Positions 366-20,140 of a DNA stretch of 45,656 nt are shown here, piece by piece (within the stretch, counting starts at the first letter, position 1; each line of letters begins with the position of its first letter). Source of the stretch: Acidobacteriota bacterium (lineage in GTDB: Bacteria; Acidobacteriota; Thermoanaerobaculia; Multivoradales; JAGPDF01). The notes beneath the pieces were generated by a model. That model made no database searches and was not told where the DNA came from. It saw only the letters and a program-made list of their open reading frames with translations. The translations under genes were made by a program, and so were the position numbers. The stretch spans positions 1 to 45,656 of the forward strand of contig WYBK01000176.1 of the NCBI GenBank assembly GCA_011525905.1. Direction: 5' to 3'.

Positions 366-643
366 CGAACGCGCAGCGCCCGGGCACGCGCCGAGCCACC
401 CCTTAGCTGCCGCTTCTCAGAGGAGTAGCAAGGCCCCCATGCCCGCTCGCGCAGCGCCGGGGCGGCAGCGAAGTCACTCCCTAGTCGCCGCTTCTCGCAG
501 GAGAAGCCTCACCACGGTGCCCGCACGCGCAGCGCCAGGGCGCTCGCGGAGCCACCCGGTAGATGCAGCTTCCTGCAACGTTCCACCTACCACGAAGGCG
601 GCTCGCGCAGCGCCCAGGCGAGCGCGTCGGCACCGGAGAGAAA
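366..643. repeat. Phased 78-bp degenerate tandem repeat: three full units (366-443, 444-521, 522-599) plus a decayed fourth; weaker relics extend back to about 178
   Basis: The 11-nt core CGCGCAGCGCC recurs at 370, 448, 526 and 604, an exact 78-bp spacing. A TAG is conserved at 404/482/560. Units 1-2 carry a GCTTCTC-N4-GAG(T/A)AGC hairpin (412-429, 490-507). No credible reading frame spans the units. Confidence 0.8.
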
Positions 644-644
644 G

Positions 645-1601
<957 letters not shown>

Positions 1602-1602
1602 C

Positions 1603-2325
1603 ATGTCCACGCTCCTCCGGCGGCGTCGCGCGCCGCTCGCCCTCGCGCTGCTGCTCGCCCTCGGGCTCTCCCCGTCGGCGCCCGCCCTGGCCGAGCTGGT
1701 GGTGCTGACCGACGGCTCCTACTTCAAGGTGACCGCCTTCGAGGCGCTCGACGGCGAGGCCCGACTGACCCTGCCGGGCGGCGGGCGCCTCTCGATGGCC
1801 CTCGAACGGGTGGAGCGCGTGCTCGACGACGAGATCGTGCCGGGCGCCGAGGCGGAAGGGGCGCGGATGGAAGAGGAGGCCGAGGGCTTCCCGGTGCGCT
1901 TCGCGGCCGACCAGCGGCGGCCGGCGACCTCCTACGGCGACCTGATCTACGAGGCGGCGCGACGCCACGAGATCAATCCCGAGCTGGTCGTCGCCGTCAT
2001 CCGCGCCGAGTCGGGGTTCGACGCGCGCGCGGTCTCGCACGCCGGGGCGCGCGGCCTGATGCAGCTGATGCCGGCGACCGGCCGGCGCTACGGCCTGCGC
2101 ACCAGCGAGCTCTACGACCCCGCCAAGAACATCGAGGCCGGCGTGCGCTACCTGCGCTTCCTGGCCGACCGCTTCGGCGACGACCTGGCGCGCATCCTGG
2201 CCGGCTACAACGCCGGCGAGGGGGCGGTCGACCGCTACGGCGGCGTGCCCCCCTATCGGGAGACGCAGGGCTACATCCGCCGGATCTACTCGTTCCTCGG
2301 CATCGAGGAGCTGGCGCCCCGGTAG
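1603..2325 (+). CDS. Secreted lytic transglycosylase (SLT domain)
   Basis: ATG 1603 lies 1 nt after the xerD stop. Signal peptide MSTLLRRRRAPLALALLLALGLSPSAPALA. SLT motifs VIRAESGFD, GLMQLMP, AGYNAGEGAV. Confidence 0.85.
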   Translation: MSTLLRRRRAPLALALLLALGLSPSAPALAELVVLTDGSYFKVTAFEALDGEARLTLPGGGRLSMALERVERVLDDEIVPGAEAEGARMEEEAEGFPVRFAADQRRPATSYGDLIYEAARRHEINPELVVAVIRAESGFDARAVSHAGARGLMQLMPATGRRYGLRTSELYDPAKNIEAGVRYLRFLADRFGDDLARILAGYNAGEGAVDRYGGVPPYRETQGYIRRIYSFLGIEELAPR

Positions 2326-4909: not shown

Positions 4910-4939
4910 TTGGAGCGCGCGTAAGTGCTGAAGTAGGAT
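4910..4939 (+). promoter_or_regulatory. Candidate sigma70-type promoter for the nuoB block (TTGGAG-18 nt-TAGGAT)
   Basis: An AT-richer patch in an otherwise GC-rich spacer. Hexamers at 4910-4915 and 4934-4939; GGAGG at 4946-4950 precedes ATG 4955. Confidence 0.25.
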
Positions 4940-4954
4940 GCCCGCGGAGGCGCG

Positions 4955-5455
4955 ATGGAAGTCCAAGGCGAATCCTGGCTGACCACGAAGCTCGAGCCCT
5001 TCGTCGACTGGGCCCAGAAGAACTCCTTCTGGCCGCTGCCGTTCGGCACGGCCTGCTGCGCGATCGAGTTCATGGGCACCGTCTCGTCGCACTACGACAT
5101 GTCCCGCTTCGGCTACGAAGTCGTCCGCTTCTCCCCTCGTCAGAGCGACCTGATGATCGTCGCGGGCACGATCACCGACAAGATGGCGCCGGTGCTCAAG
5201 CGGATCTACGACCAGATGCCCGACCCGAAATGGGTCGTCTCGATGGGCGCCTGCGCCTGCTCGGGCGGCTTCTACCGCGCCTATCACGTGATGCAGGGGA
5301 TCGACGAGATCATCCCGGTCGACATCTACGTGCCGGGTTGTCCGCCGTCGCCCGAGGGGCTGATGTACGGCATCCTGCAGATCAAGGAGAAGATCGACCG
5401 GGAGCGCAAGGCCTCGCGGCGCGGCGGCAAGCGGAAGGGCGAGCATGCCGCCTGA
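4955..5455 (+). CDS. nuoB: NADH-quinone oxidoreductase subunit B (N2 Fe-S subunit)
   Basis: 166 aa. FGTACCAIEFM, MGACACSGG and VPGCPPSP supply the four N2 cluster cysteines. Confidence 0.95.
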   Translation: MEVQGESWLTTKLEPFVDWAQKNSFWPLPFGTACCAIEFMGTVSSHYDMSRFGYEVVRFSPRQSDLMIVAGTITDKMAPVLKRIYDQMPDPKWVVSMGACACSGGFYRAYHVMQGIDEIIPVDIYVPGCPPSPEGLMYGILQIKEKIDRERKASRRGGKRKGEHAA

Positions 5456-7163
5456 GGCCGCCGTCGCGCTCGATCCCGCCGCCGCGATCGCCGCCGGCTT
5501 CCCCGAAGGCAGCGTCGTGCCCCAGGAGGGTCCCGGCGCGCCGACCGACCAGCCCACCTGGGTGGTGCGGCGCGAGGTGCTGCGCGACCTCTGCCGGGCG
5601 CTGCGCGACAATCCCAAGACCCGCTTCGACCTGCTGCTCGACGTCTGCGGCGTCGACTACCCCGAGCGCGAGGAGCGTTTCGAGTCGGTCTATCACCTCT
5701 ACTCGATGCCCCGCGGCCGCCGGCTGCGGCTCAAGGTCCCGGTGGCCGAGGGCGACGCCCGCATCCCCTCGGTGGTTCCGGTCTGGAAGGGCGCCGACTG
5801 GTTCGAGCGCGAGGTCTACGACATGTTCGGCGTGGTCTTCGAAGACCATCCGAACCTACGGCGCATCCTGACCCACGACGGCTTCCAAGGGCATGCGCTG
5901 CGCAAGGACTACGACCCGGCGCGCCGCTGGATCCTGACCGAAGACAAGATCTACATGCCGAAGCTGGTCGCCCCGCCCGGGCGGAGCGACTCGATGTTCG
6001 AGCGGATGACGATCAACATCGGCCCGTCGCACCCGGCGATGCACGGCACCTTCCGCTTCGTCGCCATGGTCGACGGCGAGGAGATCGTCGCTTCCGAGGT
6101 CGAGATCGGCTACCTCCACCGCTGCATGGAGAAGATGTCGGAGACGCACACCTGGCAACAGGTGATTCCGTACACCGATCGCCTGAACTACTGCTCCTCG
6201 TTCATCAACAACGTCGCCTACTGCCGCACGGTGGAGAAGCTGCTCGGCGTCGAGGTGCCGCCCAAGGCGGTCTGGGCGCGCACGATCCTCTCCGAGTTCT
6301 CGCGCGTCATGGACCACTGCGTGGCCAACGGGTCGTCGCTGGTCGACACCGGAGCGCTGACCAACTTCTGGTACTTCTTCCAGGTGCGCGAGGAGATCTA
6401 CGGCCTGCTCGAGGCGGTCTGCGGCGCGCGGCTGACGGTCTCCGCCTGCCGGATCGGCGGCCTGCTCGCCGACCTGCCGCCCGACTTCGTCGCCCGCTGC
6501 CGGCGGCTGCTCGAGTTCATCCCGCCGTTGATCGACGACGTCGAGAAACTGATCGACAAGAACCGCATCTGGATCGACCGCTCGGTCGGCATCGCGGCGA
6601 TCTCGGGCGAGGACGCGGTCAACTGGAGCTGGACCGGCCCCTGCCTGCGCGCCTCGGGCGTCGCCTACGACGTGCGCAAGGCGCACCCCTACGACCTCTA
6701 CGACACGGTCGACTGGCAGGTACCGGTGCTCTACGGGGGCGACACCTACGACCGGTACAAGGTGCGCATGCTCGAGATCCGGCAGTCGCTCTCGATCATC
6801 CGCCAGCTGCTCGATCGCGGCATGCCCGAGGGCCCCTTCGTGGTCGACGACCCGCACGTCGCGCTGCCGTCGAAGGAGGCCTGCTACAACCAGATGGAGT
6901 CCATGATCTACCACTTCAAGCTGATCATGGACGGCATCCAGGTGCCGCCGGGCGAGACCTACCTGATGACCGAGGGCGCCAACGGCGAGCTCGGCTTCTA
7001 CGTCGTCTCCGACGGCTCGGGCAAGCCCTATCGGCTGCACGTCCGCGCACCCTGCTTCCCGATCTTCTCGACCTTCTCGGATCTGATGCGCGGGCACTCG
7101 ATCTCCGATGCCATCGCCACGCTCGGGGGCCTGAACGTGATCGCCGGCGAGCTGGAGCGCTGA
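5445..7163 (+). CDS. nuoCD: Fused NADH-quinone oxidoreductase subunits C and D
   Basis: 572 aa. The N-terminal ~170 aa are NuoC-like (WKGADWFEREVYDMFG). The remainder is NuoD-like (GPSHPAMHGTFR ... RAPCFPIF ... IAGELER). The ATG overlaps the nuoB 3' end by 11 nt. Confidence 0.95.
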   Translation: MPPEAAVALDPAAAIAAGFPEGSVVPQEGPGAPTDQPTWVVRREVLRDLCRALRDNPKTRFDLLLDVCGVDYPEREERFESVYHLYSMPRGRRLRLKVPVAEGDARIPSVVPVWKGADWFEREVYDMFGVVFEDHPNLRRILTHDGFQGHALRKDYDPARRWILTEDKIYMPKLVAPPGRSDSMFERMTINIGPSHPAMHGTFRFVAMVDGEEIVASEVEIGYLHRCMEKMSETHTWQQVIPYTDRLNYCSSFINNVAYCRTVEKLLGVEVPPKAVWARTILSEFSRVMDHCVANGSSLVDTGALTNFWYFFQVREEIYGLLEAVCGARLTVSACRIGGLLADLPPDFVARCRRLLEFIPPLIDDVEKLIDKNRIWIDRSVGIAAISGEDAVNWSWTGPCLRASGVAYDVRKAHPYDLYDTVDWQVPVLYGGDTYDRYKVRMLEIRQSLSIIRQLLDRGMPEGPFVVDDPHVALPSKEACYNQMESMIYHFKLIMDGIQVPPGETYLMTEGANGELGFYVVSDGSGKPYRLHVRAPCFPIFSTFSDLMRGHSISDAIATLGGLNVIAGELER

Positions 7164-7164
7164 C

Positions 7165-7830
7165 ATGACCGAGCTCGAAGCCCGCCCCGAAGCCCTCCAG
7201 CTGCCCGGCGTGCAGGACCATCCGAAGGAGGTCCGGCCGCGCCCGATGTCGCTCGGCGAGCGGCTCTACCTGCCGCTGCTCGCCGGCATGACGGTGACGC
7301 TGCGCCACTTCTTCCAGAACATCTTCCGGACGCGCGAGCGGGTGACCATCCAGTATCCGGAGGAGCGGCGCGACTACTCGCACCGCTACCGGGGCCACCA
7401 CATACTGACCACGCGTCCGGACGGCTCGGTGCGCTGCGTCGCCTGCTTCCTCTGCGCCACCGCCTGCCCGGCCGACTGCATCCACATCGAGGCGGGCGAG
7501 CACCACGACGTCAACGTCGAGAAGTACCCGGTGGTCTACGAGATCGACATGCTGCGCTGCGTCTTCTGCGGCTATTGCGTGGACGCCTGCCCGGAGGAGG
7601 CGATCATCATGTCGAACAACTACGACATGGCCTTCTACAGCCGGTCGCAGTCGATCGTCGGCAAGGAGGACCTGATGAAGCCCTTCACCTTCGATCCTGG
7701 CAAGCTCGGCTATCGGCCGCGCTTCCCGGAGGAGGAGGAGAAGCGCGCCGCGATGCGCCGCGAGGCGTTCGACCTGGTCGCCGCAGCCAAGGCGAAGGGG
7801 GAGCCGCAGAGCCGGGTCGCCGCCGGCTGA
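7165..7830 (+). CDS. nuoI: NADH-quinone oxidoreductase subunit I (2x[4Fe-4S]) with N- and C-terminal extensions
   Basis: Two ferredoxin motifs, CVACFLCATACP and CVFCGYCVDACP. The ATG lies 1 nt after the nuoCD stop. 221 aa. Confidence 0.9.
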   Translation: MTELEARPEALQLPGVQDHPKEVRPRPMSLGERLYLPLLAGMTVTLRHFFQNIFRTRERVTIQYPEERRDYSHRYRGHHILTTRPDGSVRCVACFLCATACPADCIHIEAGEHHDVNVEKYPVVYEIDMLRCVFCGYCVDACPEEAIIMSNNYDMAFYSRSQSIVGKEDLMKPFTFDPGKLGYRPRFPEEEEKRAAMRREAFDLVAAAKAKGEPQSRVAAG

Positions 7831-8862: not shown

Positions 8863-10230
8863 TCAACCGTCCGGCAGCCGGACCTCGAAGCAGACCCCCT
8901 CGGAGCCGCCGTCGAGCAGCTCGACGGAGCCGCCGTGCGCCTCGGCGGCCCAGCGCACGACCGAGAGGCCGAGGCCGCCGATGCCGGTGCCGGCACCACC
9001 CCGGTAGTAGCGGTCGAACAGGCGCGGCCGCTGCTCGGGCGGGATCGCGGGGCCGGAGTTGGCGACCCGGATCCGCGCCTCGGCGCTCGTCCGCTCGACC
9101 TCGACGCGGACCGGCCCATCCGGCGTGCCGTGCTTGATCGCGTTGTCGAGCAGGTTGAACAGGACGAGCCGGACCAGCTGCTCGTCGGCGCAGACGACCG
9201 CGCGCTCGTCGACCCGCGAGACGATCGTGAGCCCACGTTCGCGGCTGGCCGGAGCGAGCCGTTCGATGGCCTCGTCGACGAGGCGTGCGAGGTGGACTTC
9301 CGAGCGGCTCAGGCGGGGCTCGGCGCCCGGCTCGGCGCGCGCCAAGGCGAGCAGCCCCTCGAGCACGGCCTGGAGGTGGACGATCTCCTGCAGGTTCTCG
9401 GCGAGCAGGCGCCGGTACTCCTCGGGGGCCCGCTCCCGCCGCAGGGTCACCTCGATGCCGGTGCGCAGCACCGAGAGCGGGTTGCGGATCTCGTGCGAGG
9501 CGTCCGCGGTGAAGCGGCGCATCGCCTCCAGGCTCCCCGCCAGGCGCTCGAGCAGGTCGTCGAAGGCGTCGGCGAGGATCGCGACCTCCTCGACGGCCGG
9601 GTGGCGCGGACCCAGCCGGCGATGGGGCTGCTCCGGGTCGATCGCGCGGATCGCGGCGACCAGGCCGGCGATCGGCGCCAGCGCCCGGCGGGCGAGCAGG
9701 CGGCCGCCGAGCGCGGCGCCCGGAATCACGACGAGCCCGACCAGGCCGAGGATGAGACCGAGCCGCCGCTCGGCGGCGATCACCCGGTCGAGCGAGCCGA
9801 TCGCTTCGGCGACCAGCCCGCTGCCGAGCCGGCGCCCCCGGCCGCCGACCGCGTGGGCGACCAGCAGGTAGCGGCCGCCCGCCTCGCTCATCTCGATGGT
9901 GACGACCTCCTCCGTCAGGTCCTCGCTCGAGACCGGCAGCGCCGGGGCCCCCGGGGTTGCGGCGAGCAGCTCGCCGCCGCCGCGCACCCGCAACCAGATG
10001 CGCATCGGCTCCTCCTCGGGAGCCTGCAGCTCGGGCGCGTCGAGCCGGCCGCTGGCGGCGACGTAGGCGGCCAGCGCCTCGGCCTCGTTCTTGAGCGTCA
10101 GGGCGGCGAGGTCGCGGCGCGCGCGGGCCGAAGTCAGCCAGACCGCGCCGGCGACGGTGCCGTAGAGCAGGAGCAGCGTGAGCGCGAAGCGCCGCGCGAT
10201 GCCGCGCTCGAGCGAAGCGCCGGAGCTCAC
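8863..10230 (-). CDS. Sensor histidine kinase (two TM segments, HAMP, HisKA, HATPase_c)
   Basis: H-box FTADASHEIRNPL, N-box LLDNAIKH, G-box GIGGLGLSVV. GTG 10230 overlaps the response-regulator stop (GTGA). The track ORF extends further upstream in frame through the regulator gene. Confidence 0.85.
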   Translation of the reverse strand: MSSGASLERGIARRFALTLLLLYGTVAGAVWLTSARARRDLAALTLKNEAEALAAYVAASGRLDAPELQAPEEEPMRIWLRVRGGGELLAATPGAPALPVSSEDLTEEVVTIEMSEAGGRYLLVAHAVGGRGRRLGSGLVAEAIGSLDRVIAAERRLGLILGLVGLVVIPGAALGGRLLARRALAPIAGLVAAIRAIDPEQPHRRLGPRHPAVEEVAILADAFDDLLERLAGSLEAMRRFTADASHEIRNPLSVLRTGIEVTLRRERAPEEYRRLLAENLQEIVHLQAVLEGLLALARAEPGAEPRLSRSEVHLARLVDEAIERLAPASRERGLTIVSRVDERAVVCADEQLVRLVLFNLLDNAIKHGTPDGPVRVEVERTSAEARIRVANSGPAIPPEQRPRLFDRYYRGGAGTGIGGLGLSVVRWAAEAHGGSVELLDGGSEGVCFEVRLPDG

Positions 10231-10907
10231 CGTGGCGGCTCGATCGACAGCCGCCAGCCGACGCCGGGAACCGTGTGCAGGAGCCTGGGGGCGCCATCCG
10301 CCTCGAGCTTGCGGCGCAGCCGGCCGACGATGACGTCGACGACGTTGCTGCGCGCCTCGTAGTCCGCGTCCCAGACGTGCTCGGCGAGCGTGGCGCGCGC
10401 GAGCGCCACACCGGGGTGGAGCAGGAAGTACTCGAGCAGGGCGAGCTCTTTGGGCGTCAGGTCGAGCGGCCGGCTGCCGCGGCTCGCCGTCCGGGCGGTG
10501 CGATCGAAACGGAGGTCTCCGACCTCGACGACCTCGACCGGCGGTGTCGCCCGGCGCCGCAGCAGGGAGCGGACCCGCGCCAGCAGCTCCTCGAAGGCGA
10601 ACGGCTTGGTCAGGTAGTCGTCGGCCCCGGCGTCGAGGCCGGCTACCTTCTCCTCGGTCCGGTCTTGCGCGGTGAGCACCAGCACCGGCGCGGTGAATCC
10701 TTCCGTCCGCCATTCCCGCAGCAGGTCGGTGCCCGAGCCGTCGGGGAGCCGGAGATCGAGCAGCACCAGGTCGTAGTCGGCCTCGAGCGACCGGTCGCGC
10801 GCGGCCGCCAGGCCATGGGCGACGTCGGCGGCGAACCCCTCCTCGCGCAGGCCGGCGGCGAGCCGTTCCGCGAGCCGCCGCTCGTCCTCGACGACCAGGA
10901 GGCGCAC
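10227..10907 (-). CDS. OmpR-family response regulator (REC + winged helix)
   Basis: 226 aa. LVLLDLRLPDGSG, YLTKPF, C-terminal TPKELALLEYF ... VPGVGWRL. GTG start. Confidence 0.9.
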   Translation of the reverse strand: MRLLVVEDERRLAERLAAGLREEGFAADVAHGLAAARDRSLEADYDLVLLDLRLPDGSGTDLLREWRTEGFTAPVLVLTAQDRTEEKVAGLDAGADDYLTKPFAFEELLARVRSLLRRRATPPVEVVEVGDLRFDRTARTASRGSRPLDLTPKELALLEYFLLHPGVALARATLAEHVWDADYEARSNVVDVIVGRLRRKLEADGAPRLLHTVPGVGWRLSIEPPR

Positions 10908-11002: not shown

Positions 11003-11599
11003 ATGAGAAAGTTCGCCTTGCTCGCCCTGATCCTGTCCTGGGGCACACTCGCGCCGGCCGCCGCCGAGGAGCGCGTCCTGGTGCTCGACCCCGCCGCCAC
11101 CGAGGTCGCCTTCGATCTGCCGGCGACCGGTCACGACGTCCACGGGCTGTTCACGCTGCGCGAGGGAGAGATCCGCTTCGATCCGGCGACCGGCGCGGCG
11201 AGCGGCGAGATCCGGGTCGACCTCGGTGCCGGCGTCACCGGCAACGCGAGCCGCGACCGGACGATGCGCGAGGAGGTGCTCGAGACGGAGCGCTTCCCGG
11301 TCGCCCGCTTCGTCGCGCGCCGGCTCGAGGGCGAGCTGCACCCGCAAGGGGCGTCGAGAATCGCGCTCGAGGGGATCCTCGACCTGCACGGCGCCGAGCA
11401 CGAGATCACGCTGCCCGCCGAAGTGGCGATCGACGGTCCCCGCCTGGTCGCCGACCTCTCCTTCCCGGTCCCCTTCGTCGAGTGGGGACTCGCGGACCCG
11501 AGCATCCTCTTCCTGCGCGTGGCCAAGATCGTCTCGGTCCAGATCCACGCCGCGGGTGAGCTGCGCGCCCCCCTCGCCGTTGGCGCCGGCGGCGACTGA
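11003..11599 (+). CDS. yceI: YceI-like periplasmic polyisoprenoid-binding protein
   Basis: ATG 11003 follows AGGAGG (10993-10998). Signal peptide MRKFALLALILSWGTLAPAAA. YceI-like beta-barrel pattern (GHDVHGLF, VTGNASRDRTMREEVLETERFP, LDLHG). Confidence 0.75.
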   Translation: MRKFALLALILSWGTLAPAAAEERVLVLDPAATEVAFDLPATGHDVHGLFTLREGEIRFDPATGAASGEIRVDLGAGVTGNASRDRTMREEVLETERFPVARFVARRLEGELHPQGASRIALEGILDLHGAEHEITLPAEVAIDGPRLVADLSFPVPFVEWGLADPSILFLRVAKIVSVQIHAAGELRAPLAVGAGGD

Positions 11600-11606
11600 G
11601 GCGCCC

Positions 11607-12581
11607 TTGCTCGCCTTGGTCGACCGGAGCCGGCCCGCTGCGCCCCGGCCACGTGCGCCGCTCGTCCTGCTCCCAGCCGCCGAGCTCGACCGCCTGCGCC
11701 TGGAGGTTCAACGGCTGCTCGCGCTACCGCGCGGAACGGAGAGCCACCTGGCCGGCGCGGTGCGCGACACGCTCGCCTCGCCGGGTTCGCTCTGGCGCGC
11801 GCAGCTGGCCTGGGCGACCGGGCGCGTCCACGGCCTCGCCCCGCGCGTCGCGCTCGATCTGGCGCTGGGGATCGAGGCGTTCCACACCGCTTCCCTGCTG
11901 TTCGACGACCTGCCGGCGATGGACGACGCCGTCACGCGCCGGGGCCGCCCCTGCGTCCACCGAGTGCACGGCGAGGCGGCGGCGCTGCTCGCCGCGCTCG
12001 GCTTCGTTCATCGCGGCTACGCGCTGGTCTGGCGAGCCTTGGCCGGTGCCCGGCCGCGGCCGCGGCGGGCGGCCGCGGCCTTGCTCGAAGAGTGCCTCGG
12101 GCTGACCGGCATTCTCGACGGCCAGGCCTGGGATCTCCACCTCGAGGGCGCCGGGCTCGCGGGAGAGCGCTGCGCGCGCGTGGTGGCGGGCAAGACCGTG
12201 CCGCTGCTGCGGCTGGCGCTGGAGCTGCCGGCGGTGGTCGCCGGCGCCCCGGCCGCCCGTCGCCGGCTGCTCGCCGAGCTGGCGCGCCGCTGGGGCCTCG
12301 CCTACCAGACCCTCGACGACGTCGAAGATCGAGTGGCGGCGCCGGATGCCGCCGCCGCGGGCGACGCCGAGCTCGGACGGCCGAACCTCGCCGGTTCGCT
12401 CGGGGCGACGGGAGCCCTCGCCCAGGTCGACGAGGAGCTGGCCGCCGTCCGGCCGCTGCTCGCGGCGCTCGAGAGCGCTCTCGGACCGGACGCCGCGCCC
12501 TATCTGCGGCTCGATGGCCACTTGCGCAGCGCGCGCTGGGCGGCGGCCGCGCGCTGCGGGGCGCCGGCACCGGCAGGATGA
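11607..12581 (+). CDS. Polyprenyl diphosphate synthase family protein (trans-isoprenyl type)
   Basis: FARM SLLFDDLPAMDDAVTRRGRP (DD..DD at 11904-11927), GQAWD, GKTVPLL, SARM YQTLDDVED (12315-12329). No ATG or GTG after the yceI stop; the only candidate starts are TTG 11607 or 11616. Confidence 0.75.
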   Translation: MLALVDRSRPAAPRPRAPLVLLPAAELDRLRLEVQRLLALPRGTESHLAGAVRDTLASPGSLWRAQLAWATGRVHGLAPRVALDLALGIEAFHTASLLFDDLPAMDDAVTRRGRPCVHRVHGEAAALLAALGFVHRGYALVWRALAGARPRPRRAAAALLEECLGLTGILDGQAWDLHLEGAGLAGERCARVVAGKTVPLLRLALELPAVVAGAPAARRRLLAELARRWGLAYQTLDDVEDRVAAPDAAAAGDAELGRPNLAGSLGATGALAQVDEELAAVRPLLAALESALGPDAAPYLRLDGHLRSARWAAAARCGAPAPAG

Positions 12582-13891
12582 GCGCCGCGCCCGCGGCAGC
12601 CGAGTCGACGCTCGCCCGGGAGGCGGCCACCGGAGCGCCGACTCGCGCCGAGAACCTGGCGGAGGCCGTCGCCGCGCACGCCCTCTTCTGGCTCCTCGTC
12701 GGGTCGGGCGTCGGGCTCTGGTTGGCGACGCTGCAGCTCGCCCCCGAGTGGGGCGCCACCCTCGGTGCCGCCACGTACGGGCGCTGGGCCGCGCTCCACC
12801 TCGACCTCACGCTCTACGGCTGGCTGGCGCTGCCGCTCGTCGGCCTGCTCCTCGATGCCTTCGGCGCCGATCGTCACGTGGCGGCGGGGCGGCTGGCGCT
12901 CGCCCTCTGGTCGGGCGCGCTCGCCGCGGGCGCGGCGAGCTGGCTCGGCGGCCGCACCTCCGGCAAGCTCTTCCTCGACTGGACCGGTCCGGCCGCGGTG
13001 CTCTTCGCCGGCGCGCAACTCGGGGTCGCGGCCCTGCTCGCGCGCGGGCTCGCCGGCTCGGTGCGCCGACAGGGCTGGAGCCGCAGCCACGTCGCCCGAG
13101 CGCTCCTGCTCGCCCTCCTGCTCGCGGTGCCGGCCCTCCTGGTCGCCGCCAGCGACGGCCGGGTCTACCCGCCGATCGACCCGGTGAGCGGCGGCCCGAC
13201 CGGCACGAGCCTGCTCGGCAGCTCGCTCGGCCTGGTCGCGCTGCTGCTCGCCGTGCCCCGGCTGCTCCGGCTGACCGAGGTGGCGGCGGGCCGCGGGCGC
13301 TGGCTCGCCCCCGGAGTCTGGCTGCTGCACGCGGCGCTCTTCGTCGGGCTCGATCATGTCGACCGGCCGAACGGGGATCCGCGCGAGCTGCTGGCCCTCG
13401 GCAGCGTGGTGATCTGGGCCTGGCTGCTGCCGCGCGAGGCCGCGCGCTTCCTCTGGCCGCCGGGCAGCCGCAAATGGCTGCGTGCCCTGGCGGCCTGGGG
13501 CCTCCTGCTGCTCGCGAGCGGCCTGCTTTCGTTCGCTCCCGGCGTGCTCGACCGGGTCAAGTTCGGCGAGGGGCTGGTCGCCCACGCGCACGTCGCGATG
13601 GCGGGGTTCGCCTCCGCCTTCGTGATGCTGGTGCTCCATCGTCTGCTCGATCGGGGCGATCGGCGGGCGACCCTCACCGCTCCGGAGCCCTTCGCGCTCT
13701 GGCAGGGAGGGCTCGCCCTGCAGATCGCGGCGCTCGCCGCGCTGGGCGCGCTCGAGGCGATCGACCCGGCCGCACGGCTGCGCGGCGGGGGCACCCTCGA
13801 TGCGCTGCTGGCGCTGCGCTGGGTCGGGGGGGCGGCGATGCTCGCGGCAACGATCGGCTGGCTGCGCCAGCTCGTCCGGCGGCCGGCATGA
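12578..13891 (+). CDS. Polytopic membrane protein resembling haem-copper oxidase subunit I (CcoN/NorB-like) but without a complete CuB His set
   Basis: 437 aa. ATGA overlap with the upstream gene. YGRWAALHLDLTLYGW (H74 codon 12797-12799) and LVAHAHVAMAGF (H336/H338 at 13583-13591) resemble the HCO TM2 and TM10 haem-ligand motifs. There is no His between residues 171 and 251. Confidence 0.55.
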   Translation: MSAAPAAAESTLAREAATGAPTRAENLAEAVAAHALFWLLVGSGVGLWLATLQLAPEWGATLGAATYGRWAALHLDLTLYGWLALPLVGLLLDAFGADRHVAAGRLALALWSGALAAGAASWLGGRTSGKLFLDWTGPAAVLFAGAQLGVAALLARGLAGSVRRQGWSRSHVARALLLALLLAVPALLVAASDGRVYPPIDPVSGGPTGTSLLGSSLGLVALLLAVPRLLRLTEVAAGRGRWLAPGVWLLHAALFVGLDHVDRPNGDPRELLALGSVVIWAWLLPREAARFLWPPGSRKWLRALAAWGLLLLASGLLSFAPGVLDRVKFGEGLVAHAHVAMAGFASAFVMLVLHRLLDRGDRRATLTAPEPFALWQGGLALQIAALAALGALEAIDPAARLRGGGTLDALLALRWVGGAAMLAATIGWLRQLVRRPA

Positions 13892-14328
13892 GCCGGGCCG
13901 CCACGCGAGCCCTCGGTCGAGGTCGCGAGCGCGTGTTGCCCGCGTTCTGCGCGGTCGCGGGCGGCGGCGACCTGCTGACCGGGCTCCTCTTGCTCGCCCG
14001 TCCGGCCGTGGCGCTCGCGCCGCTCGGCCTGACGGTACCGGCCGAGTCCTGGGTCTTCCTGCGCTGGATCGGCCTCTTCGTCGCCGCGGTCGGGACGATC
14101 TACCTGCAACCCTGGAGGCTCCCCCCGGGCTCCGAGCGGCGGTCGCGGCTGCGCGCAGCCCTCGAGATCACCGCGCTCGTCCGGCTGGCGGTCGCCGCTT
14201 TCGTCGCCGGCGCGGTCCTCGCTGCGGAGCTTGCCGCCCCCTGGCTCGCCGTCGGCGGTTACGACGCGCTGGTGGCGCTCGGGCAGCTCTTCCTATTGCC
14301 TGCGGCGAAGGCTCCCGATGTCCACTGA
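13888..14328 (+). CDS. Small hydrophobic membrane protein (about 4 TM), function unknown
   Basis: 146 aa. ATGA overlap with the upstream gene; an 11-nt overlap with the downstream gene. Confidence 0.55.
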   Translation: MSRAATRALGRGRERVLPAFCAVAGGGDLLTGLLLLARPAVALAPLGLTVPAESWVFLRWIGLFVAAVGTIYLQPWRLPPGSERRSRLRAALEITALVRLAVAAFVAGAVLAAELAAPWLAVGGYDALVALGQLFLLPAAKAPDVH

Positions 14329-16222
14329 CCGACGCCGCCTGGTGAGTGTCGCCGCGGCGGTCGCGGCGGTTTACTTCGCTTTCCTGCTCTGCGCCCAGTT
14401 CGGCTTCCTGGCGCAGCTGGAACGCGCGCTGGGCGCCGAGCCGCGCGCGTTGCAGGGAGCGCTCGCCGCGATGGCGGTGGCCGGAGTGGCCGCGGGCGTC
14501 GCGGCGGCGCGCACGCTCGTCCGGCGCTCGGGCCGCGGCGCCGTGCGCGCCGGCCTGCTGGCGGTGGCGGTGGCCTGCGCCGCGTCGATCGGCGCTCGCC
14601 AGGCGCCGACTCTCGTGCTCGCCGCGGCCGGCTTGGGCGCGGCGCTCGGCTGGGCGACGGTGGCGCTCGCCGGCTCGCTCCTCCGGCTCGCCCCGGCGGG
14701 CGCGGCCGGGCGCGCGGCGGGATTCGGCACCGGCGCCGCCTACCTGCTGGCGAACCTGCCGCCGCTCTTCGCGGGCGATCCGGCGCTGCGCGCCGCCGTC
14801 CCGGCGGCGGCCTGCGTGCTGGCTGCGGGGTTGCTGCCCAGCGACCGCAGGCCTCCGCCGGAGCGGCTGCCGCAGGCTGGCGAGCGCTCGCACATCGCGG
14901 CAGCGGGCGATTTTCCGGCGCTGGTCATGGCCTTCCTGCTGCTCGTCGCCCTCGATTCGGCGGCCTTCGCCGCCATTCAGCACGACTCGGTTCTCCTCGC
15001 GGTCAGCTGGGGGGGGGACGCTCACGCGATGCGACAGGGTCTCGTCCACCTGCTCGCGGCTTGCGCCGCCGGCGTCGCGCTCGACCGCGGCGGGCTGCGG
15101 GCCCTGCTGCTGGCCGCCGGCGCGAGCTTCGCCATCGCGCTGCCCGCGCTCGGCGCTGGGGCGGCCGCCGCGGCGCTCGCCGCCCCTCTCTACGCGGTCG
15201 GCATCTCGGCCTACAGCGCGGCGCTGGTCGCGGCGCCCTCCCTGGCGGGGGGTGCGGTGCCCAGGACGGCGGCCAGCCGCGCCGCCTGGCTCTTCGGAGT
15301 CGCCGGCTGGCTCGGCTCGGGGCTGGGGGTCGGGGCGGCGAAGCACCTCGGATGGCCGGTGATCGCCGGCGCCGCGCTCGCGGTCCTCGGCGCCGTCGCG
15401 GCGCTGTTGGCGCCGAGCGTCCGCGGCCGGGCGCGCGAGACGGCGCTCGCCCTCGCGGTGGGAGCCTGCGGCGGCTTCGTCGCGCTGCGCTCGCCGGCGC
15501 CGGCCGACGACCCGGTCGCGCGCGGCCGGCAGGTCTATCTCGCCGAAGGCTGCCAGCACTGCCACTCGCAGTACGTGCGTCCGGTGGCGCAGGACGCCCT
15601 CTGGTGGGGGCCGCGCCGCGAGCTCGACCGGCGGGAGCATCCGCCCACCCCCGGGAATCGCCGGATCGGCCCGGATCTGGCCAACGTCGGAGTGCGTCGC
15701 GCCGCGCTCTGGCAGGAGCGGCACTTGCGGGACCCGCGAGCGCTGTCGCCGGCCTCGAGCATGCCTTCCTACGCCCACCTGTTCGCCACCGGCGAGCGAC
15801 GGGGGTCCGATCTGGTCGCCTACCTGGGCTCGCTCGGTGCGGGGGCCGAGGCGGCACGGCTGGCCACGATCCGGCGGGCGCCGATGGCGGCGGCGCCGCA
15901 GGTACCCTCGGCGTCGCGCGGCGCCCGACTCTTCGCGCGCCACTGCGCCCCCTGCCACGGCGAAGGGGGCCGCGGCGATGGCGGCGCCCTGGGCGACCTC
16001 GCCCTGCCGGGGCTCGACCTGCGCGAGGGAGCGCTCCGCCGAGCTCGCGACTACGGCGTCGACGAGCCGCTCGAGCGGGCGGTGGCGCGGGTGATCCGCT
16101 TCGGCCTGCCCCCCTGGCTGATGCCGGGGCACGAATGGCTCTCCGCGCAGGAGGTCGGCGATCTCGCCGCCTTCGTGATCGAGCTCTCGGCGAGCGGCGA
16201 CGTCCGGGTGGCCGCTCGATGA
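14318..16222 (+). CDS. Fusion protein: MFS-like polytopic domain + CcoO (cbb3 subunit II/NorC-like) monohaem domain + second cytochrome c domain
   Basis: 634 aa. Residues 1-395 are a hydrophobic 6+6-like domain with a central loop. GRQVYLAEGCQHCHSQYVRP ... GPDLANVG ... SSMPSY matches CcoO (CQHCH at 15551-15565). The second haem motif CAPCH is at 15944-15958, with an MPG Met ligand. Confidence 0.8.
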   Translation: MSTDRRRLVSVAAAVAAVYFAFLLCAQFGFLAQLERALGAEPRALQGALAAMAVAGVAAGVAAARTLVRRSGRGAVRAGLLAVAVACAASIGARQAPTLVLAAAGLGAALGWATVALAGSLLRLAPAGAAGRAAGFGTGAAYLLANLPPLFAGDPALRAAVPAAACVLAAGLLPSDRRPPPERLPQAGERSHIAAAGDFPALVMAFLLLVALDSAAFAAIQHDSVLLAVSWGGDAHAMRQGLVHLLAACAAGVALDRGGLRALLLAAGASFAIALPALGAGAAAAALAAPLYAVGISAYSAALVAAPSLAGGAVPRTAASRAAWLFGVAGWLGSGLGVGAAKHLGWPVIAGAALAVLGAVAALLAPSVRGRARETALALAVGACGGFVALRSPAPADDPVARGRQVYLAEGCQHCHSQYVRPVAQDALWWGPRRELDRREHPPTPGNRRIGPDLANVGVRRAALWQERHLRDPRALSPASSMPSYAHLFATGERRGSDLVAYLGSLGAGAEAARLATIRRAPMAAAPQVPSASRGARLFARHCAPCHGEGGRGDGGALGDLALPGLDLREGALRRARDYGVDEPLERAVARVIRFGLPPWLMPGHEWLSAQEVGDLAAFVIELSASGDVRVAAR

Positions 16223-17154
16223 GGGGACGCCGCTTCGCGACGGCCGGGCTGCTGCTCTCCGCCTCCGCGCTCGCTCTGCACTCCGGGTGGGGGAGGGGGG
16301 AGCGCCCCTGGCGGGAGGCGACCGGCTTCGACCGGGTGCCCCCGCCGCTGCGGCCGCCGGACGATCTGCCCTGGCCAGCGGCGGTCGGGCCGCCGCCCCG
16401 ACTGGCCTGGCTCGGCCATGCCGGCTTCCTGCTGGAGTGGCGAGGCGCCCGGCTGCTGGTCGACCCGAACCTCTCCCCGCGGTGCTCGCTGGTGCGGCGC
16501 CGAATGGAACGCGCGATCGGACCGGCGCAGCTCGGAGCGCTCGACGCCGTCCTGCTGACTCACGCCCACTACGACCATCTCGATCGGCCGACGCTCGCCG
16601 CCCTCGAGCGAGTCGGTCGCTTGCTGCTGCCGGCGGGCAGCGAGGGCTACGTCGCCGGGTTGCGCTCCGACGCGGCCGTCGAGGGGGTCGCGGCCTGGGC
16701 CTCGGTGACGGTCGCCGGCCTGGAAATCGTCGGGGTGCCGGCCTTCCACCACGGCCACCGGCACCATCCGCTGGCGAGCTCCAAACAGGCCCTCGGCTGG
16801 GTGGTTCGCGGCGGCGGGGCCTCGATCTACTTCGCCGGCGACACCGGCGCGGCGAACGACTTCGCCGCCATCGGCGAGCGCTTCCATCCGGCGATCGCCG
16901 TGCTGCCGATCGGCGCCTACGCGCCGCCCTGGCCGATCGGGCGGGTCCATCTCTCGCCGGTGCAGGCGGTCGAGGCGGCGATCCGACTCGGCCGCCCGCT
17001 CGTGGTGCCGGCCCACTTCGGCACCTTCGCGCTGGCGCTCGACCGGCCGGCGGCGGCGCTGCCCCGCTTCGCCCTCGCCGCCGCCGGTGGCGGCGTCGAG
17101 TGGCGGATGCCCCGGTTGGCGCGCGCTGCCGCCGCGAACGAGGGAACGTCGTGA
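16219..17154 (+). CDS. MBL-fold metallo-hydrolase (Lactamase_B_2 / NAPE-PLD-like), membrane-anchored or secreted
   Basis: 311 aa. ATGA overlap. N-terminal hydrophobic segment. LTHAHYDHLD metal motif, FAGDTG, PAHFGTF. Confidence 0.75.
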   Translation: MRGRRFATAGLLLSASALALHSGWGRGERPWREATGFDRVPPPLRPPDDLPWPAAVGPPPRLAWLGHAGFLLEWRGARLLVDPNLSPRCSLVRRRMERAIGPAQLGALDAVLLTHAHYDHLDRPTLAALERVGRLLLPAGSEGYVAGLRSDAAVEGVAAWASVTVAGLEIVGVPAFHHGHRHHPLASSKQALGWVVRGGGASIYFAGDTGAANDFAAIGERFHPAIAVLPIGAYAPPWPIGRVHLSPVQAVEAAIRLGRPLVVPAHFGTFALALDRPAAALPRFALAAAGGGVEWRMPRLARAAAANEGTS

Positions 17155-19241
17155 GCAGCCGGCTGGCGGCCTTCTGGGAGCGCCGGCTGGGCGGGCTGGT
17201 CGAGCTCGCGCTGCGCAGGCCGCGAACCGTCCTCGCGATCGCCGGGGTGGTGGCGGCTCTCTCCGGGGCGCTCGTCGTCACCCGCCTCGAGCTGCGCAGC
17301 TCCAACCTCGACCTGATCGATCCGCGGCTGCCCGAGATCGCCCGCTTCCGCGACTTCGCGGCCCGCTTCGGCACGCCCAACGTCCTGATCGTCGCGCTGG
17401 AAGGGGAGGAGCGCGTCCGCCTCGCGCGGCTCGCCGACCGCCTGGCCTCGGCGCTCCCGCGAGTGACCGGCGTGCGCTCGGTGCTCGCCCGCTTGCCCTT
17501 TCGCGACGAGACGCTCGCGGCGTTCGGCGTGGCCCCGCATTTCTTCTCCGACGACGGCCGGAGGCTCTATCTCTTCGTGCAACCGGCGGACGCCGACTCC
17601 GCGGCGGCCACCATCGCGCCCTTCGTCGCCGGCGTGCGAGCGGCCGTCGCGGCGCTCGCGCCGGAGCGCGAAGGCATTCGGGTCGGCTTCACCGGGCTAC
17701 CGCAGTACGCGCTCGACGACCGCGACTTCGTGCGGCGCGACCTCTCGCGCCTTTCGGCGCTGTCGTTCGCCCTGGTGGCGGCGCTCTTCGTCGCCGGCTT
17801 TCGCGGCGTGCGGCAGCCGCTCCTCGCGATGGCCACGCTGGCGCTGGCGGCGCTCGCGACCGCCGGTGTCGCGGCGCTCGCGCCCGGCCATCTGACCCTG
17901 GTCTCGGCCTTCTTCTTCTCGATCCTCTTCGGGCTGGGGATCGATTTCGCGGTCCACCTGCTGGACGCGGTGGCGGAGCGGCGCGCGCTCGGCGAGCGGC
18001 TCGAGCCAGCGATCGCCGGTTCGGCGCGCTTCTTGGCCCCCGGCCTGGGCACGGGGGCGGCGACCACGGCGCTCTCCTTCTTCGTTCTCCTGGTCTCCGG
18101 CTTCCGAGGATTCGCCGAGCTCGGCTGGCTCGCCGGAGTCGGCGTCCTGCTCGCGCTGCTCGCCACGCTGACCGTTCTGCCCGCGGCCCTCTGTCTGCTG
18201 CCGCCGTCCTCGGCTCGACCACGCGCGGCGCACGAGCGCCGGACCGGTCGCTGGCTGCTGGCCGCCCAGCGGCCGGGCATCGCCCTGGCGCTGTTCGGGA
18301 TCGCGGCCGGCTCGCTCCTGGTCGGACCGCCGCCGTTCGACGGCAACTACCTGAACCTGGAGCCGGCGGGCTCCGAGGCGGTTCGCCTGGAGCGCGAGAT
18401 GGTGCGCGGCTCGACCTTTGCGCCGCAGTTCGCGGCGTTCGTGGTGGCCGATGCGGCGGCGGCGCGACGGCTCGCCGCCGAGCTGCGTCGCGAGGAAACG
18501 GTCGCTTCGGTGCGCACGCTCACCGACCTGGCGCCCCTGGTCGGCCTCGGCGCGGCGCTGCCGGAGGCCTTCGAGGGCTTCCGCTCGCTGTTCGTCGATC
18601 CGGAGGGGCGGCACGCCGTCTACGCCTATCCGGCCGGCGACGTCTGGGAGCCGGGATTCCAGCAGAGGTTTCTCGACGCCATGCGGCGTCTCGACCCCGA
18701 GGTCACCGGCATGCCCTTCGTCGGGCGATTCCTGGTCGACCGCTCGCACCGGGCACTGCGCCGCACCGTCTGGCTCGCCGCGGCGCTGCTCGTCGCCGTG
18801 GTGCTCGCCGACTTCGCGCGACCGACGGCGGCGCTGCTGGCGACGTTGCCGACCTTTCTCGGCCTGATGGTCCAGCTGGGGGCGATGCGGCTGCTCGGCG
18901 TGCCGCTCAACCCGCTCGACATCCTGGCTTTTCCGGTAGTCCTGGGCATCGCCGAGGACAGCGGCGTCCACCTCGTGCACCGCTACCTGGCGGAACGGGG
19001 CGACCTGGCGCGCACGCTCGCGGGCGCCGGCCGTACGGTGCTGCTCTGCGGCGTGACGACCCTCGCCGGCTTCGGCGGGCTCGCCGCCGCGACGCACCGC
19101 GGCCTCGCCTCGTTCGCGCTCGCGCTCGCGCTCGGAGTCGCCGCGGCGCTCGTCTTCTCGCTGCTGCTGCTGCCGCAGCTCCTGCGGTTCGCGCTGCCGC
19201 GCGCCGGGTTCGCCGAGGGGCGCGCGGAGGAGCCCGCGTGA
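17151..19241 (+). CDS. MMPL/RND-superfamily transporter (HpnN-like architecture, two 6-TM bundles)
   Basis: 696 aa. GTGA overlap. Two repeats, each a periplasmic loop followed by TM bundles, with GLGIDFAVHLL and GIAEDSGVHLVHRY motifs. Confidence 0.8.
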   Translation: MSSRLAAFWERRLGGLVELALRRPRTVLAIAGVVAALSGALVVTRLELRSSNLDLIDPRLPEIARFRDFAARFGTPNVLIVALEGEERVRLARLADRLASALPRVTGVRSVLARLPFRDETLAAFGVAPHFFSDDGRRLYLFVQPADADSAAATIAPFVAGVRAAVAALAPEREGIRVGFTGLPQYALDDRDFVRRDLSRLSALSFALVAALFVAGFRGVRQPLLAMATLALAALATAGVAALAPGHLTLVSAFFFSILFGLGIDFAVHLLDAVAERRALGERLEPAIAGSARFLAPGLGTGAATTALSFFVLLVSGFRGFAELGWLAGVGVLLALLATLTVLPAALCLLPPSSARPRAAHERRTGRWLLAAQRPGIALALFGIAAGSLLVGPPPFDGNYLNLEPAGSEAVRLEREMVRGSTFAPQFAAFVVADAAAARRLAAELRREETVASVRTLTDLAPLVGLGAALPEAFEGFRSLFVDPEGRHAVYAYPAGDVWEPGFQQRFLDAMRRLDPEVTGMPFVGRFLVDRSHRALRRTVWLAAALLVAVVLADFARPTAALLATLPTFLGLMVQLGAMRLLGVPLNPLDILAFPVVLGIAEDSGVHLVHRYLAERGDLARTLAGAGRTVLLCGVTTLAGFGGLAAATHRGLASFALALALGVAAALVFSLLLLPQLLRFALPRAGFAEGRAEEPA

Positions 19242-20140
19242 GGTCGGCGATTCTGTGCGGGGCGGTCGGCCGTGCCCTCGCCGGTGGGCTGCTGGCGGCG
19301 GCCTGCGCCGGCGCGGCGAGCGCGACGGCGTTCGAGGAGCAGCGCGCGGCGACCTGCTGGGCGGCACGCCACCGGGGCTTCGAAGCGACCGGCCGAGTCG
19401 ACCCGGCGCCGGTCCGGTGCGCGATCGAGGGATTCGGCGCCGCTGCGGCGGCCGCACCGGAGCGACTCGAGCCGAGGTTTCGCGAGATCGAGGCGCTCTG
19501 GTTCGCGGCGCACTTCGTCCGCATGCCCGGCGGCGAGGCGCGGACGCTGCTCGACCGCTGCGTCGAGGTCGCGGAGGGAGCGGTCGCCGAGGTCGCGAGG
19601 CGGGCAGGAGGTGCCGCCCTCGACCCGGGCGCCGACTTCGAGCTCCGGGCCGCAGCGCTGGCGCCGATTCCCGGGGCGGGCGCCGCACACTTCTGGGCCG
19701 CGATCGCCTGGGGCGAGTGGGCGCTCCAGCACGGCGCCCTCGCCGCTCTCGCGCGGGGAGTCCCCACCAGGTTGCGTCGGCACGCCGAGCTCGCGGCGCG
19801 GCTCGCGCCCGGCCTGCGCGACGGCGGCGGCCTCCGGCTCCTCGGGCGCCTGCATGCCTCGCTGCCGCGGATTCCGGGTCTGACCGGTTGGGTCGACCGC
19901 GCGCGCGGCGTCGAGCTCCTGCGCGAGGCGGCCGCCCGCTGGCCCGGCGATCCGAGGAACCGGCTCTTCCTCGCCGAGGCCCTGCTCGAGCGAGACCCGT
20001 CGTCCAGCGGCGAAGCGCTCGCCCTGCTCGAAGACCTGGCGAACGATCGCGCCGATCCGGAGGAGCGGGTCGAGCAGGCCGAGACGCTCCACGCGGCGGC
20101 CGACCTGCTGCGGCGTCTCTCCGTCGAGAGAGCCCGATGA
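19238..20140 (+). CDS. Helical-repeat (TPR/TatT-like) putative lipoprotein, function unknown
   Basis: 300 aa. GTGA overlap. N-terminal LLAAAC lipobox-like signal. Alpha-helical repeat composition. Confidence 0.5.
   Translation: MRSAILCGAVGRALAGGLLAAACAGAASATAFEEQRAATCWAARHRGFEATGRVDPAPVRCAIEGFGAAAAAAPERLEPRFREIEALWFAAHFVRMPGGEARTLLDRCVEVAEGAVAEVARRAGGAALDPGADFELRAAALAPIPGAGAAHFWAAIAWGEWALQHGALAALARGVPTRLRRHAELAARLAPGLRDGGGLRLLGRLHASLPRIPGLTGWVDRARGVELLREAAARWPGDPRNRLFLAEALLERDPSSSGEALALLEDLANDRADPEERVEQAETLHAAADLLRRLSVERAR

Follow-up and report, generated by a model that had tools for sequence, protein, structure and literature searches.

What can a relative of the catalytic subunit of haem-copper oxidases (HCOs) do when it seems to have kept its haem ligands and lost those of the copper? 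This question is raised by one gene on contig WYBK01000176.1 of an Acidobacteriota bacterium, of which we analysed a stretch of 45,656 nucleotides (hereafter the window). We found that its predicted protein is related to CcoN, the catalytic subunit of the C-family (cbb3) oxidases, that histidines align with all three canonical haem ligands, and that none stands at the three canonical CuB positions. The gene is the following.

12578..13891, forward strand: predicted CcoN-like haem protein with the HCO subunit I fold; 437 amino acids, 12 transmembrane (TM) helices.

The open reading frame (ORF) starts with ATG and has 437 codons. Its GC content at codon positions 1, 2 and 3 is 0.81, 0.57 and 0.93, which is typical of coding DNA in a window of about 75% GC, and accordingly we consider it a real gene. 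The identical protein is recorded on 13 contigs, indicating that it is no sequencing artefact.

A sequence-only reading of this DNA had proposed a homologue of HCO subunit I. The single sequence of the window protein matched no relatives in Pfam or NCBIfam (E<=1) or in the PDB, where the sole match, to glycerol kinase (E 0.14), was judged to be a chance one. On the other hand, when 47 family sequences were used as a profile, the PDB returned solely CcoN chains of cbb3 oxidases (9g6b_A, 2.9e-8; 3mk7_A, 3.1e-7; 8smr_E, 7.9e-7). Against three CcoN and two NorB reference sequences taken from annotated plasmids, hhalign aligned the family over 392 columns with a probability of 97.6% (E 3.2e-12), and the similarity was much stronger to CcoN alone (E 1.6e-11) than to NorB alone (E 0.019). 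The AlphaFold model of the window protein (pLDDT 89.1, pTM 0.89) contains twelve long helices, which answers the question of TM topology that the earlier reading had posed. The top 50 Foldseek matches of this model are all HCO subunit I chains, in the order CcoN (TM-score 0.62-0.67), NorB of the cytochrome c-dependent nitric oxide (NO) reductase cNOR (about 0.63), and subunit I of the A and B families. Considering that the single sequence finds nothing while profile and fold do, the homology is visible at the profile or fold level only. The proposed check against the Pfam family PF00115 gave a divided answer, since the window protein itself had no match at E<=1 and nine of the 47 relatives matched individually (best 3e-13). 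Neither a transporter family nor NnrS (PF05940) was matched by the window protein in Pfam or NCBIfam (E<=1), and NnrS was also absent from the families matched by the 47 relatives. By profile and predicted structure, the window protein is therefore a divergent relative of CcoN, and the proposed homology stands. Seventeen of the 47 sequences also showed weak matches (best E 0.0033) to DUF2871, a Pfam membrane family whose function is not known, possibly through a remote relation to part of the subunit I fold.

To describe the haem and metal sites, conservation was scored on the window protein and 80 species-level homologues from GTDB genomes (81 sequences), which were co-aligned with the five references in three MAFFT modes. 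The canonical positions are given below in P. aeruginosa CcoN numbering; in P. stutzeri the CuB ligands are numbered His207, His257 and His258 (PMC3578206).

H61, low-spin haem ligand in TM2: H74 in the window protein; 100% in the 81 sequences.
H346, high-spin haem proximal ligand in TM10: H336 in the window protein; 100% in the 81 sequences.
H348, low-spin haem ligand in TM10: H338 in the window protein; 46 of 47 sequences within its subtype.
H208, CuB ligand in TM6: a Y-P-P-x-x-P-x-S-G-G-P-T-G loop in the window protein; His in 0 of 81.
H258/H259, CuB His-His pair in TM7: N265/G266 in the window protein; His at column 265 in 90% and at column 266 in 62%.

The two motifs on which the earlier reading had relied, LQLAPEW..YGRWAALHLDLTLYGW with H74 and LVAHAHVAMAGF with H336/H338, are present, and the three histidines fall on the three canonical haem ligands as it had claimed; this part of the alignment is the same in hhalign and in the three MAFFT modes. 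Accordingly, the alignments indicate that a bis-His low-spin haem b site (H74, H338) and the proximal His for a second haem (H336) are kept. The loss of the CuB ligands went further than had been claimed, because none of the three positions is His in the window protein, and no alignment places three His there. The TM6 position aligns to P207/G205 in the GGPTG loop. The histidines of the protein are at 34, 74, 100, 171, 251, 260, 336, 338 and 354, which bears out the remark that there is none between 171 and 251. Its tyrosines are solely Y67, Y80 and Y197. With no His in TM6 and no Tyr in TM7, the cross-linked His-Tyr cofactor is absent.

Other positions around the haems have also changed. E123, a Glu that all the CcoN and NorB references share, has L131 as its counterpart, and Leu is found here in 61 of the 81 sequences. 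In structures of cbb3 and cNOR, this Glu of the TM3-4 loop is the Ca2+ ligand and links the haem propionates. The invariant loop His before TM10 of CcoN aligns to the invariant K328, and Q407 and R438, at the superfamily-invariant Gln/Arg positions near the haems, correspond to E393 and R414, both essentially invariant. H34, at the cytoplasmic end of TM1, is 96% conserved in the family; it aligns with Met in CcoN and NorB and has no counterpart there.

In the TM7 region, the earlier reading had seen one histidine, H251, and had placed it where the His-His pair belongs. Neither statement held: H260 (in GLDHVDR) had been overlooked, and the pair falls on N265-G266 in all three MAFFT modes. hhalign placed the pair opposite D262/R263, and we dropped this placement for its three-residue offset from all three MAFFT modes. 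We prefer N265/G266 because it coincides with the family's own His-His column, and because the spacing (E/H)251-x13-HH is equal to H244-x13-H258H259 of CcoN. H251 itself was rejected as a CuB ligand, as it aligns, depending on the method, with the cross-link Tyr (two MAFFT modes) or with the TM7 His of CcoN that precedes the pair by 14 residues. That CcoN His lies within the cbb3 proton channel. The loop reads D-H-V-D-R-P-N-G-D-P in the window protein and D-H-G-D-H-G-H-R-E-P in its closest relatives.

These residues bear on the possibility that the protein has remained a terminal oxidase or NO reductase and works with either a non-canonical metal site or haem-only O2 chemistry like that of cytochrome bd. 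A remodelled metal site may be formed from H251, H260, D259 and D262, with H263, H265 and H266 as candidates in relatives; it is plausible where relatives have H260-x-D-H263-x-H265, and less plausible in the window protein, which has Arg at 263 and Asn-Gly at the position of the pair. On the one hand, most relatives keep a TM7 His or the His-His pair, a protonatable residue (His or Glu) is retained at position 251, the CcoO/CcoP electron-input module described below is wholly intact, and gNOR shows that HCO active sites tolerate the replacement of a ligand (PMC11214002). On the other hand, the TM6 His is absent in 81 of 81 sequences together with the cross-linked Tyr, and O2 reductases require the His-Tyr cofactor (PMC11214002); the operon, moreover, holds lipid genes and no ccoGHIS, ccoQ or norQD, and neither norQ nor norD is among the conserved neighbours. 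We therefore regard a persisting oxidase or NO reductase as quite improbable.

The window protein belongs to a large family, and its single sequence already finds hundreds of relatives. An exhaustive profile search of 1.84 billion representatives gave, at 50% identity, 212 clusters with E<=1e-30, or 330 when the limit is relaxed to E<=1e-10, and a Granulicella member used as the query gave more than 1,267 clusters at 90% identity. Relatives are encoded in at least 386 GTDB species genomes of Acidobacteriota (Thermoanaerobaculia; Acidobacteriaceae, including Terracidiphilus and Granulicella; Holophagae) and Verrucomicrobiota (Opitutaceae, Puniceicoccaceae, Akkermansiaceae, Luteolibacter). They are named "cytochrome c oxidase cbb3-type subunit 1" by JGI and "hypothetical protein" by NCBI. 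Two subtypes can be distinguished.

Type 1, which holds the window protein: Thermoanaerobaculia and most Verrucomicrobiota; His at position 251; H-A-H in TM10.
Type 2: Acidobacteriaceae; Glu at position 251; H-S-F or H-S-L in TM10, with the second low-spin haem ligand lost.

The Acidobacteriaceae branch makes up about half of the 81 sequences (for example at loci L040:9929-11293, L017 and L025-L027), and canonical bis-His binding of the low-spin haem is impossible there because H338 is replaced by Phe or Leu. This branch shows new conserved histidines at columns 126 and 326, in periplasmic loops. Across both subtypes and the two phyla, about 80 positions are at least 90% conserved, indicating a selected function and not decay, and the conserved polar residues include G205, G206, T208 and S215 of the remodelled loop as well as K130, K328 and E393. 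In the literature we found no description of this CcoN-like family or its operon; the related items were solely OccS and a Nitrospina cbb3 variant. Judging from the alignments, the family is a sizeable side branch of the cbb3 lineage that is CuB-deficient, has no name and is mis-annotated.

In comparison with known systems, the closest is CcoN of the cbb3 oxidases (P. stutzeri 3MK7, P. aeruginosa 8SMR), which is the best match in both profile and Foldseek searches. The two share the 12-TM fold, the TM2 His with the FGR/YGR motif before it, the H-x-H of TM10, the Arg of TM12, and haem c partners of the CcoO and CcoP types. In contrast, the TM6 CuB His of CcoN is replaced by the conserved YPPxxPxSGGPTG loop, its W-W-Y-G-H motif and the cross-linked Tyr have disappeared, and N265-G266, Leu and Lys328 stand in place of the TM7 pair, the putative Ca2+-ligand Glu and the pre-TM10 loop His. 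The haem c partner is also fused to a transporter domain of the major facilitator superfamily (MFS), and genes for isoprenoid synthesis and lipid export take the place of ccoQ and ccoGHIS. As three defining features of CcoN are missing, namely the three CuB histidines, the His-Tyr cofactor and the Ca2+-binding Glu, we do not file the protein as a cbb3 oxidase. With NorB of cNOR (3O0R, 4XYD) it shares the fold and the haem ligand positions, but the FeB ligands of NorB (three His and the TM6 Glu) are not conserved, the partner resembles CcoO and not NorC, and norQD is missing.

Divergent HCO families have been described as gNOR, eNOR, sNOR, nNOR, NOD and a putative N2O reductase (Murali et al. 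2024, PMC11214002), and the last two are close relatives of qNOR and cNOR. These families are precedents for HCO branches with altered active sites and no active-site Tyr, and gNOR, in which one metal-binding His is replaced by Asp, was called the first HCO with any active-site His replaced (PMC11214002). However, at least two (gNOR) or all three of the metal-binding His are retained there, whereas the TM6 His is missing throughout the present family and all three are missing in the window protein. The sole precedent that we found in the literature for an HCO-like protein without most CuB ligands is OccS of 'Candidatus Dechloromonas occultata', an uncharacterised protein like HCO subunit I that is reported to keep the haem His and to have neither the D and K proton channels nor the majority of the CuB ligands (bioRxiv 10.1101/695007). 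Compared by its description only, OccS differs in belonging to Betaproteobacteria and to a multihaem-cytochrome (occ) cluster linked to Mn(III) reduction, and it keeps the first CuB His and loses the others, which is the opposite pattern to that of the present family.

What the CcoN-like protein might do has to be considered together with its gene neighbourhood, which in the window is arranged as follows.

8863..10230, reverse strand: sensor histidine kinase of CztS/SilS/CopS (heavy-metal) type, divergent from the operon.
10227..10907, reverse strand: OmpR-family response regulator of CztR/SilR/CopR (heavy-metal) type, divergent from the operon.
11003..11599, forward strand: YceI-like periplasmic protein (polyisoprenoid-binding family) with a signal peptide.
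11580..12581, forward strand: trans-prenyl diphosphate synthase of geranylgeranyl diphosphate type; both Asp-rich motifs intact, Ala/Ser at -5/-4 before the first motif.
13888..14328, forward strand: small conserved membrane protein of 146 amino acids; its start overlaps the upstream stop (ATGA).
14318..16222, forward strand: MFS-CcoO-cytochrome c fusion of 634 amino acids; 12-TM MFS-fold domain, TM anchor, two haem c domains.
16219..17154, forward strand: metallo-beta-lactamase-fold hydrolase; its start overlaps the upstream stop; found in a subset of related loci only.
17151..19241, forward strand: resistance-nodulation-division (RND) transporter of HAE3/MMPL type, closest to HpnN (hopanoid; 4e-84) and BstA (sterol; 6e-77).
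19238..20140, forward strand: lipoprotein with the lipobox LAAAC and a partial match to outer-membrane BstC (1.8e-14).

The stop of the prenyl synthase gene overlaps the start of the CcoN-like gene (ATGA), and the stop of the latter overlaps the start of the next gene. Altogether the chain contains six consecutive start/stop overlaps, which indicates one operon, and on this prediction the CcoN-like gene is co-transcribed with a haem c protein of CcoO/CcoP type. The CcoO-type subunit that the earlier reading had seen next to the gene is thus in the same operon; it lies, however, two genes downstream, with the 146-amino-acid ORF between. This small protein (127-168 amino acids across loci) is always located between the CcoN-like and MFS-CcoO genes. 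It has invariant D28, T31, R99, W119, D126 and Q133; the protein itself found no relatives in Pfam, NCBIfam or PDB, and a 25-sequence profile found none in Pfam or PDB. By tblastn, no canonical CcoN or NorB was detected in the window or in 80 related loci.

The fusion protein supplies the putative electron input. Its CcoO/FixO haem c domain (C412xxCH, M482) matches FixO at 2.6e-24 and, as a profile, CcoO chains of the PDB at 6e-31, and its CcoP-like cytochrome c domain (C543xxCH, M602) matches CcoP at 2e-11. Across 46 fusion sequences, no variation occurs in either CxxCH motif or in either Met ligand. NCBI labels the protein "cbb3-type cytochrome c oxidase subunit II". The N-terminal 390 residues (MFS domain, 14318-15500) show the MFS fold, with Foldseek matches to OxlT, NorA, VMAT and GLUT (target TM-score 0.55-0.69), and are fused upstream of the cytochrome part in nearly all loci; at L008 and L009 the fusion is split into a 377-amino-acid protein and a 269-amino-acid cytochrome. 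The MFS domain has no CcoA-type Met motifs and has an invariant D213 (TM7) and H244 (TM8), which would sit roughly where the Cu importer CcoA has its Met/His motifs.

With such a partner, the CcoN-like protein could be a pseudo-enzyme without catalysis, a scaffold or electron wire that holds the cytochrome c/MFS subunit in place or passes electrons on. In another version, the former CuB site and the MFS domain would handle a metal ion such as Cu instead of a lipid. Such roles would fit the degenerate, evolutionarily plastic active site and the heavy-metal type of the regulator, and the MFS transporter CcoA is known to import Cu for cbb3 assembly (PMC5829832). However, the strong conservation over two phyla, including polar residues of the remodelled loop, argues for a specific function, the MFS domain has none of the Met motifs of CcoA, and the lipid genes would be left unexplained. 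Accordingly, we consider this explanation very improbable.

The lipid genes are a constant part of the neighbourhood. Synteny was counted over 80 loci from the two phyla, with the following results.

Prenyl synthase: 75 of 80 loci.
MFS domain: 73 of 80 loci.
FixO domain, about 2.9 kb downstream: 68 of 80 loci, the remainder being mostly truncated contigs.
YceI: 63-68 of 80 loci.
Two-component system: 54 of 80 loci.
LolCE-like permease of the ATP-binding cassette type: 52 of 80 loci.
HpnN-like RND transporter: 22-23 of 80 loci.

In Granulicella the order is YceI, synthase, LolCE-like, LolD-like, CcoN-like, small protein and MFS-CcoO-cytochrome c. The start codon of the prenyl synthase in the window is uncertain (TTG at 11580, 11607 or 11616). 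Of 76 orthologues, 73 have the two Asp-rich motifs intact, and the Ala/Ser at -5/-4 indicates, by the established chain-length rule, a predicted CrtE-like product of C20 or longer. The RND transporter and the lipoprotein recall the Bst sterol-transport system (PMC10942540). A gene for a UbiA-family aromatic prenyltransferase ends some operons of the Thermoanaerobaculia type (L006:15179-16036, L008:13682-14533; about 8 of 80 loci), though not the one in the window; where present, it suggests that the product may be a quinone or a prenylated aromatic compound. We considered whether the prenyl synthase serves to make haem O and rejected this, as this UbiA is of the MqnP/4-hydroxybenzoate prenyltransferase type and not of the CyoE/CtaB type, and occurs in those few loci. 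Extra FixO-like tblastn matches are found about 8-9.5 kb upstream of the CcoN-like gene at L034, L043, L066 and L075 (Terracidiphilus/Acidobacteriaceae).

Based on these results, the explanation that we prefer, at roughly even chances, is that the gene product forms the subunit-I-like core of a membrane-bound complex descended from a cbb3 oxidase, which would have no haem-copper binuclear centre and would carry out a redox step on, or serving, the isoprenoid lipid of the operon. During such a reaction, electrons would move between periplasmic carriers and the membrane haems, from the cytochrome c domain through the haem c of CcoO and haem b to the second haem. Chemistry would then occur at this haem alone; the GGPTG loop, H251, H260 and D262-R263-x-N265 would surround it as a remodelled polar pocket. 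Considering that the second haem would be alone in this pocket, canonical four-electron O2 reduction and FeB-dependent NO reduction are unlikely, and the reaction would be a different one, an oxidation or a reduction involving the isoprenoid-derived lipid that the operon makes. The lipid would afterwards be passed to YceI and the HpnN/BstC-like exporters, and expression would be controlled by the adjacent two-component system of Cu/Ag type, whose matches (6.8e-60 and 2.9e-59) are both below the curated cut-offs. That the substrate is lipid-linked is a tentative part of this proposal, and we are inclined to doubt it. It is somewhat less likely still that the whole represents an undescribed HCO branch without a copper centre, in which a cbb3 scaffold, cytochrome c input and a fused MFS domain form the redox engine of isoprenoid-lipid synthesis and export, act on lipid instead of O2 or NO, and are switched by a metal or oxidant sensor.

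Several points weigh against the preferred explanation. Its whole basis is sequence and predicted structure. Apart from the prenyl synthase, no enzyme family is conserved in the neighbourhood of the 80 loci, so that with no universal lipid-modifying enzyme the proposed substrate is guessed from the gene association. One or both TM7 His are retained in most of the family, and the closest relatives have the H-x-D-H-x-H loop; accordingly, a metal site may survive among the relatives, with the window protein possibly representing a derived state. In addition, the two-haem wiring may fail for part of the family, as the Acidobacteriaceae have Phe or Leu in place of H338.

The same pocket can also be interpreted as that of a membrane cytochrome c-dependent peroxidase or a scavenger of reactive oxygen and nitrogen species. 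In this case, a lone high-spin haem with distal His, Arg or Asn would reduce H2O2, lipid hydroperoxides or NO under envelope stress, and the isoprenoid genes would make a protective lipid. The loop that formerly held CuB nearly always has both His and Arg at columns 260, 265 and 266, which recalls the distal pairs of peroxidases, and the change of His to Asn at column 265 recurs in 7 scattered lineages, which fits a hydrogen-bonding residue better than a metal ligand. The regulator, moreover, is of the CusR/HprR heavy-metal or oxidant type, and the Granulicella operon adjoins genes for a catalase and a molybdopterin oxidoreductase. However, the catalase neighbourhood is seen in one locus only, the geometry of the distal pair is putative, and scavenging itself does not account for the translational coupling to a prenyl synthase or for the near-universal lipid exporter and YceI. 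We consider a scavenger distinctly unlikely.

Returning to the preferred explanation of a complex without a binuclear centre, its consequences would extend beyond this locus. Considering that described HCO families keep their metal-binding His, a large family without the TM6 His, in which some members lack all three, suggests that the scaffold can be reused for chemistry without a binuclear centre, which would alter the definition of the superfamily. The "cbb3-type" labels that JGI gives to the family and NCBI to its partner would be an annotation error with ecological consequences, as inferences of high-affinity microaerobic respiration in Acidobacteria from metagenomes may count this CcoN-like family (for example, the statements on Terracidiphilus in PMC9599518). 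The linkage to a prenyl diphosphate synthase, YceI, and exporters like HpnN/BstA or LolCDE points to an undescribed envelope-lipid pathway in abundant soil phyla. If true, an HCO-derived enzyme acting on lipid would be present in at least 386 species of phyla that are abundant in soil and peat.

Two other regions of the window, upstream of the operon, can be described. At 4937-7830 on the forward strand there is a run of genes of complex I type, for a NuoB-like protein (Oxidored_q6), a fused 30-kDa/49-kDa (NuoCD-like) protein and a 4Fe-4S ferredoxin-like protein, followed by an aldo/keto reductase; in the stretches scanned, no membrane subunits were seen with it. At the left end of the window, a tyrosine recombinase of the phage integrase family (429-1601, forward strand) and a lytic transglycosylase (SLT; 1363-2325, forward strand) adjoin each other, and as listed these two ORFs overlap by about 240 bases, so that one of the two starts is probably wrong.

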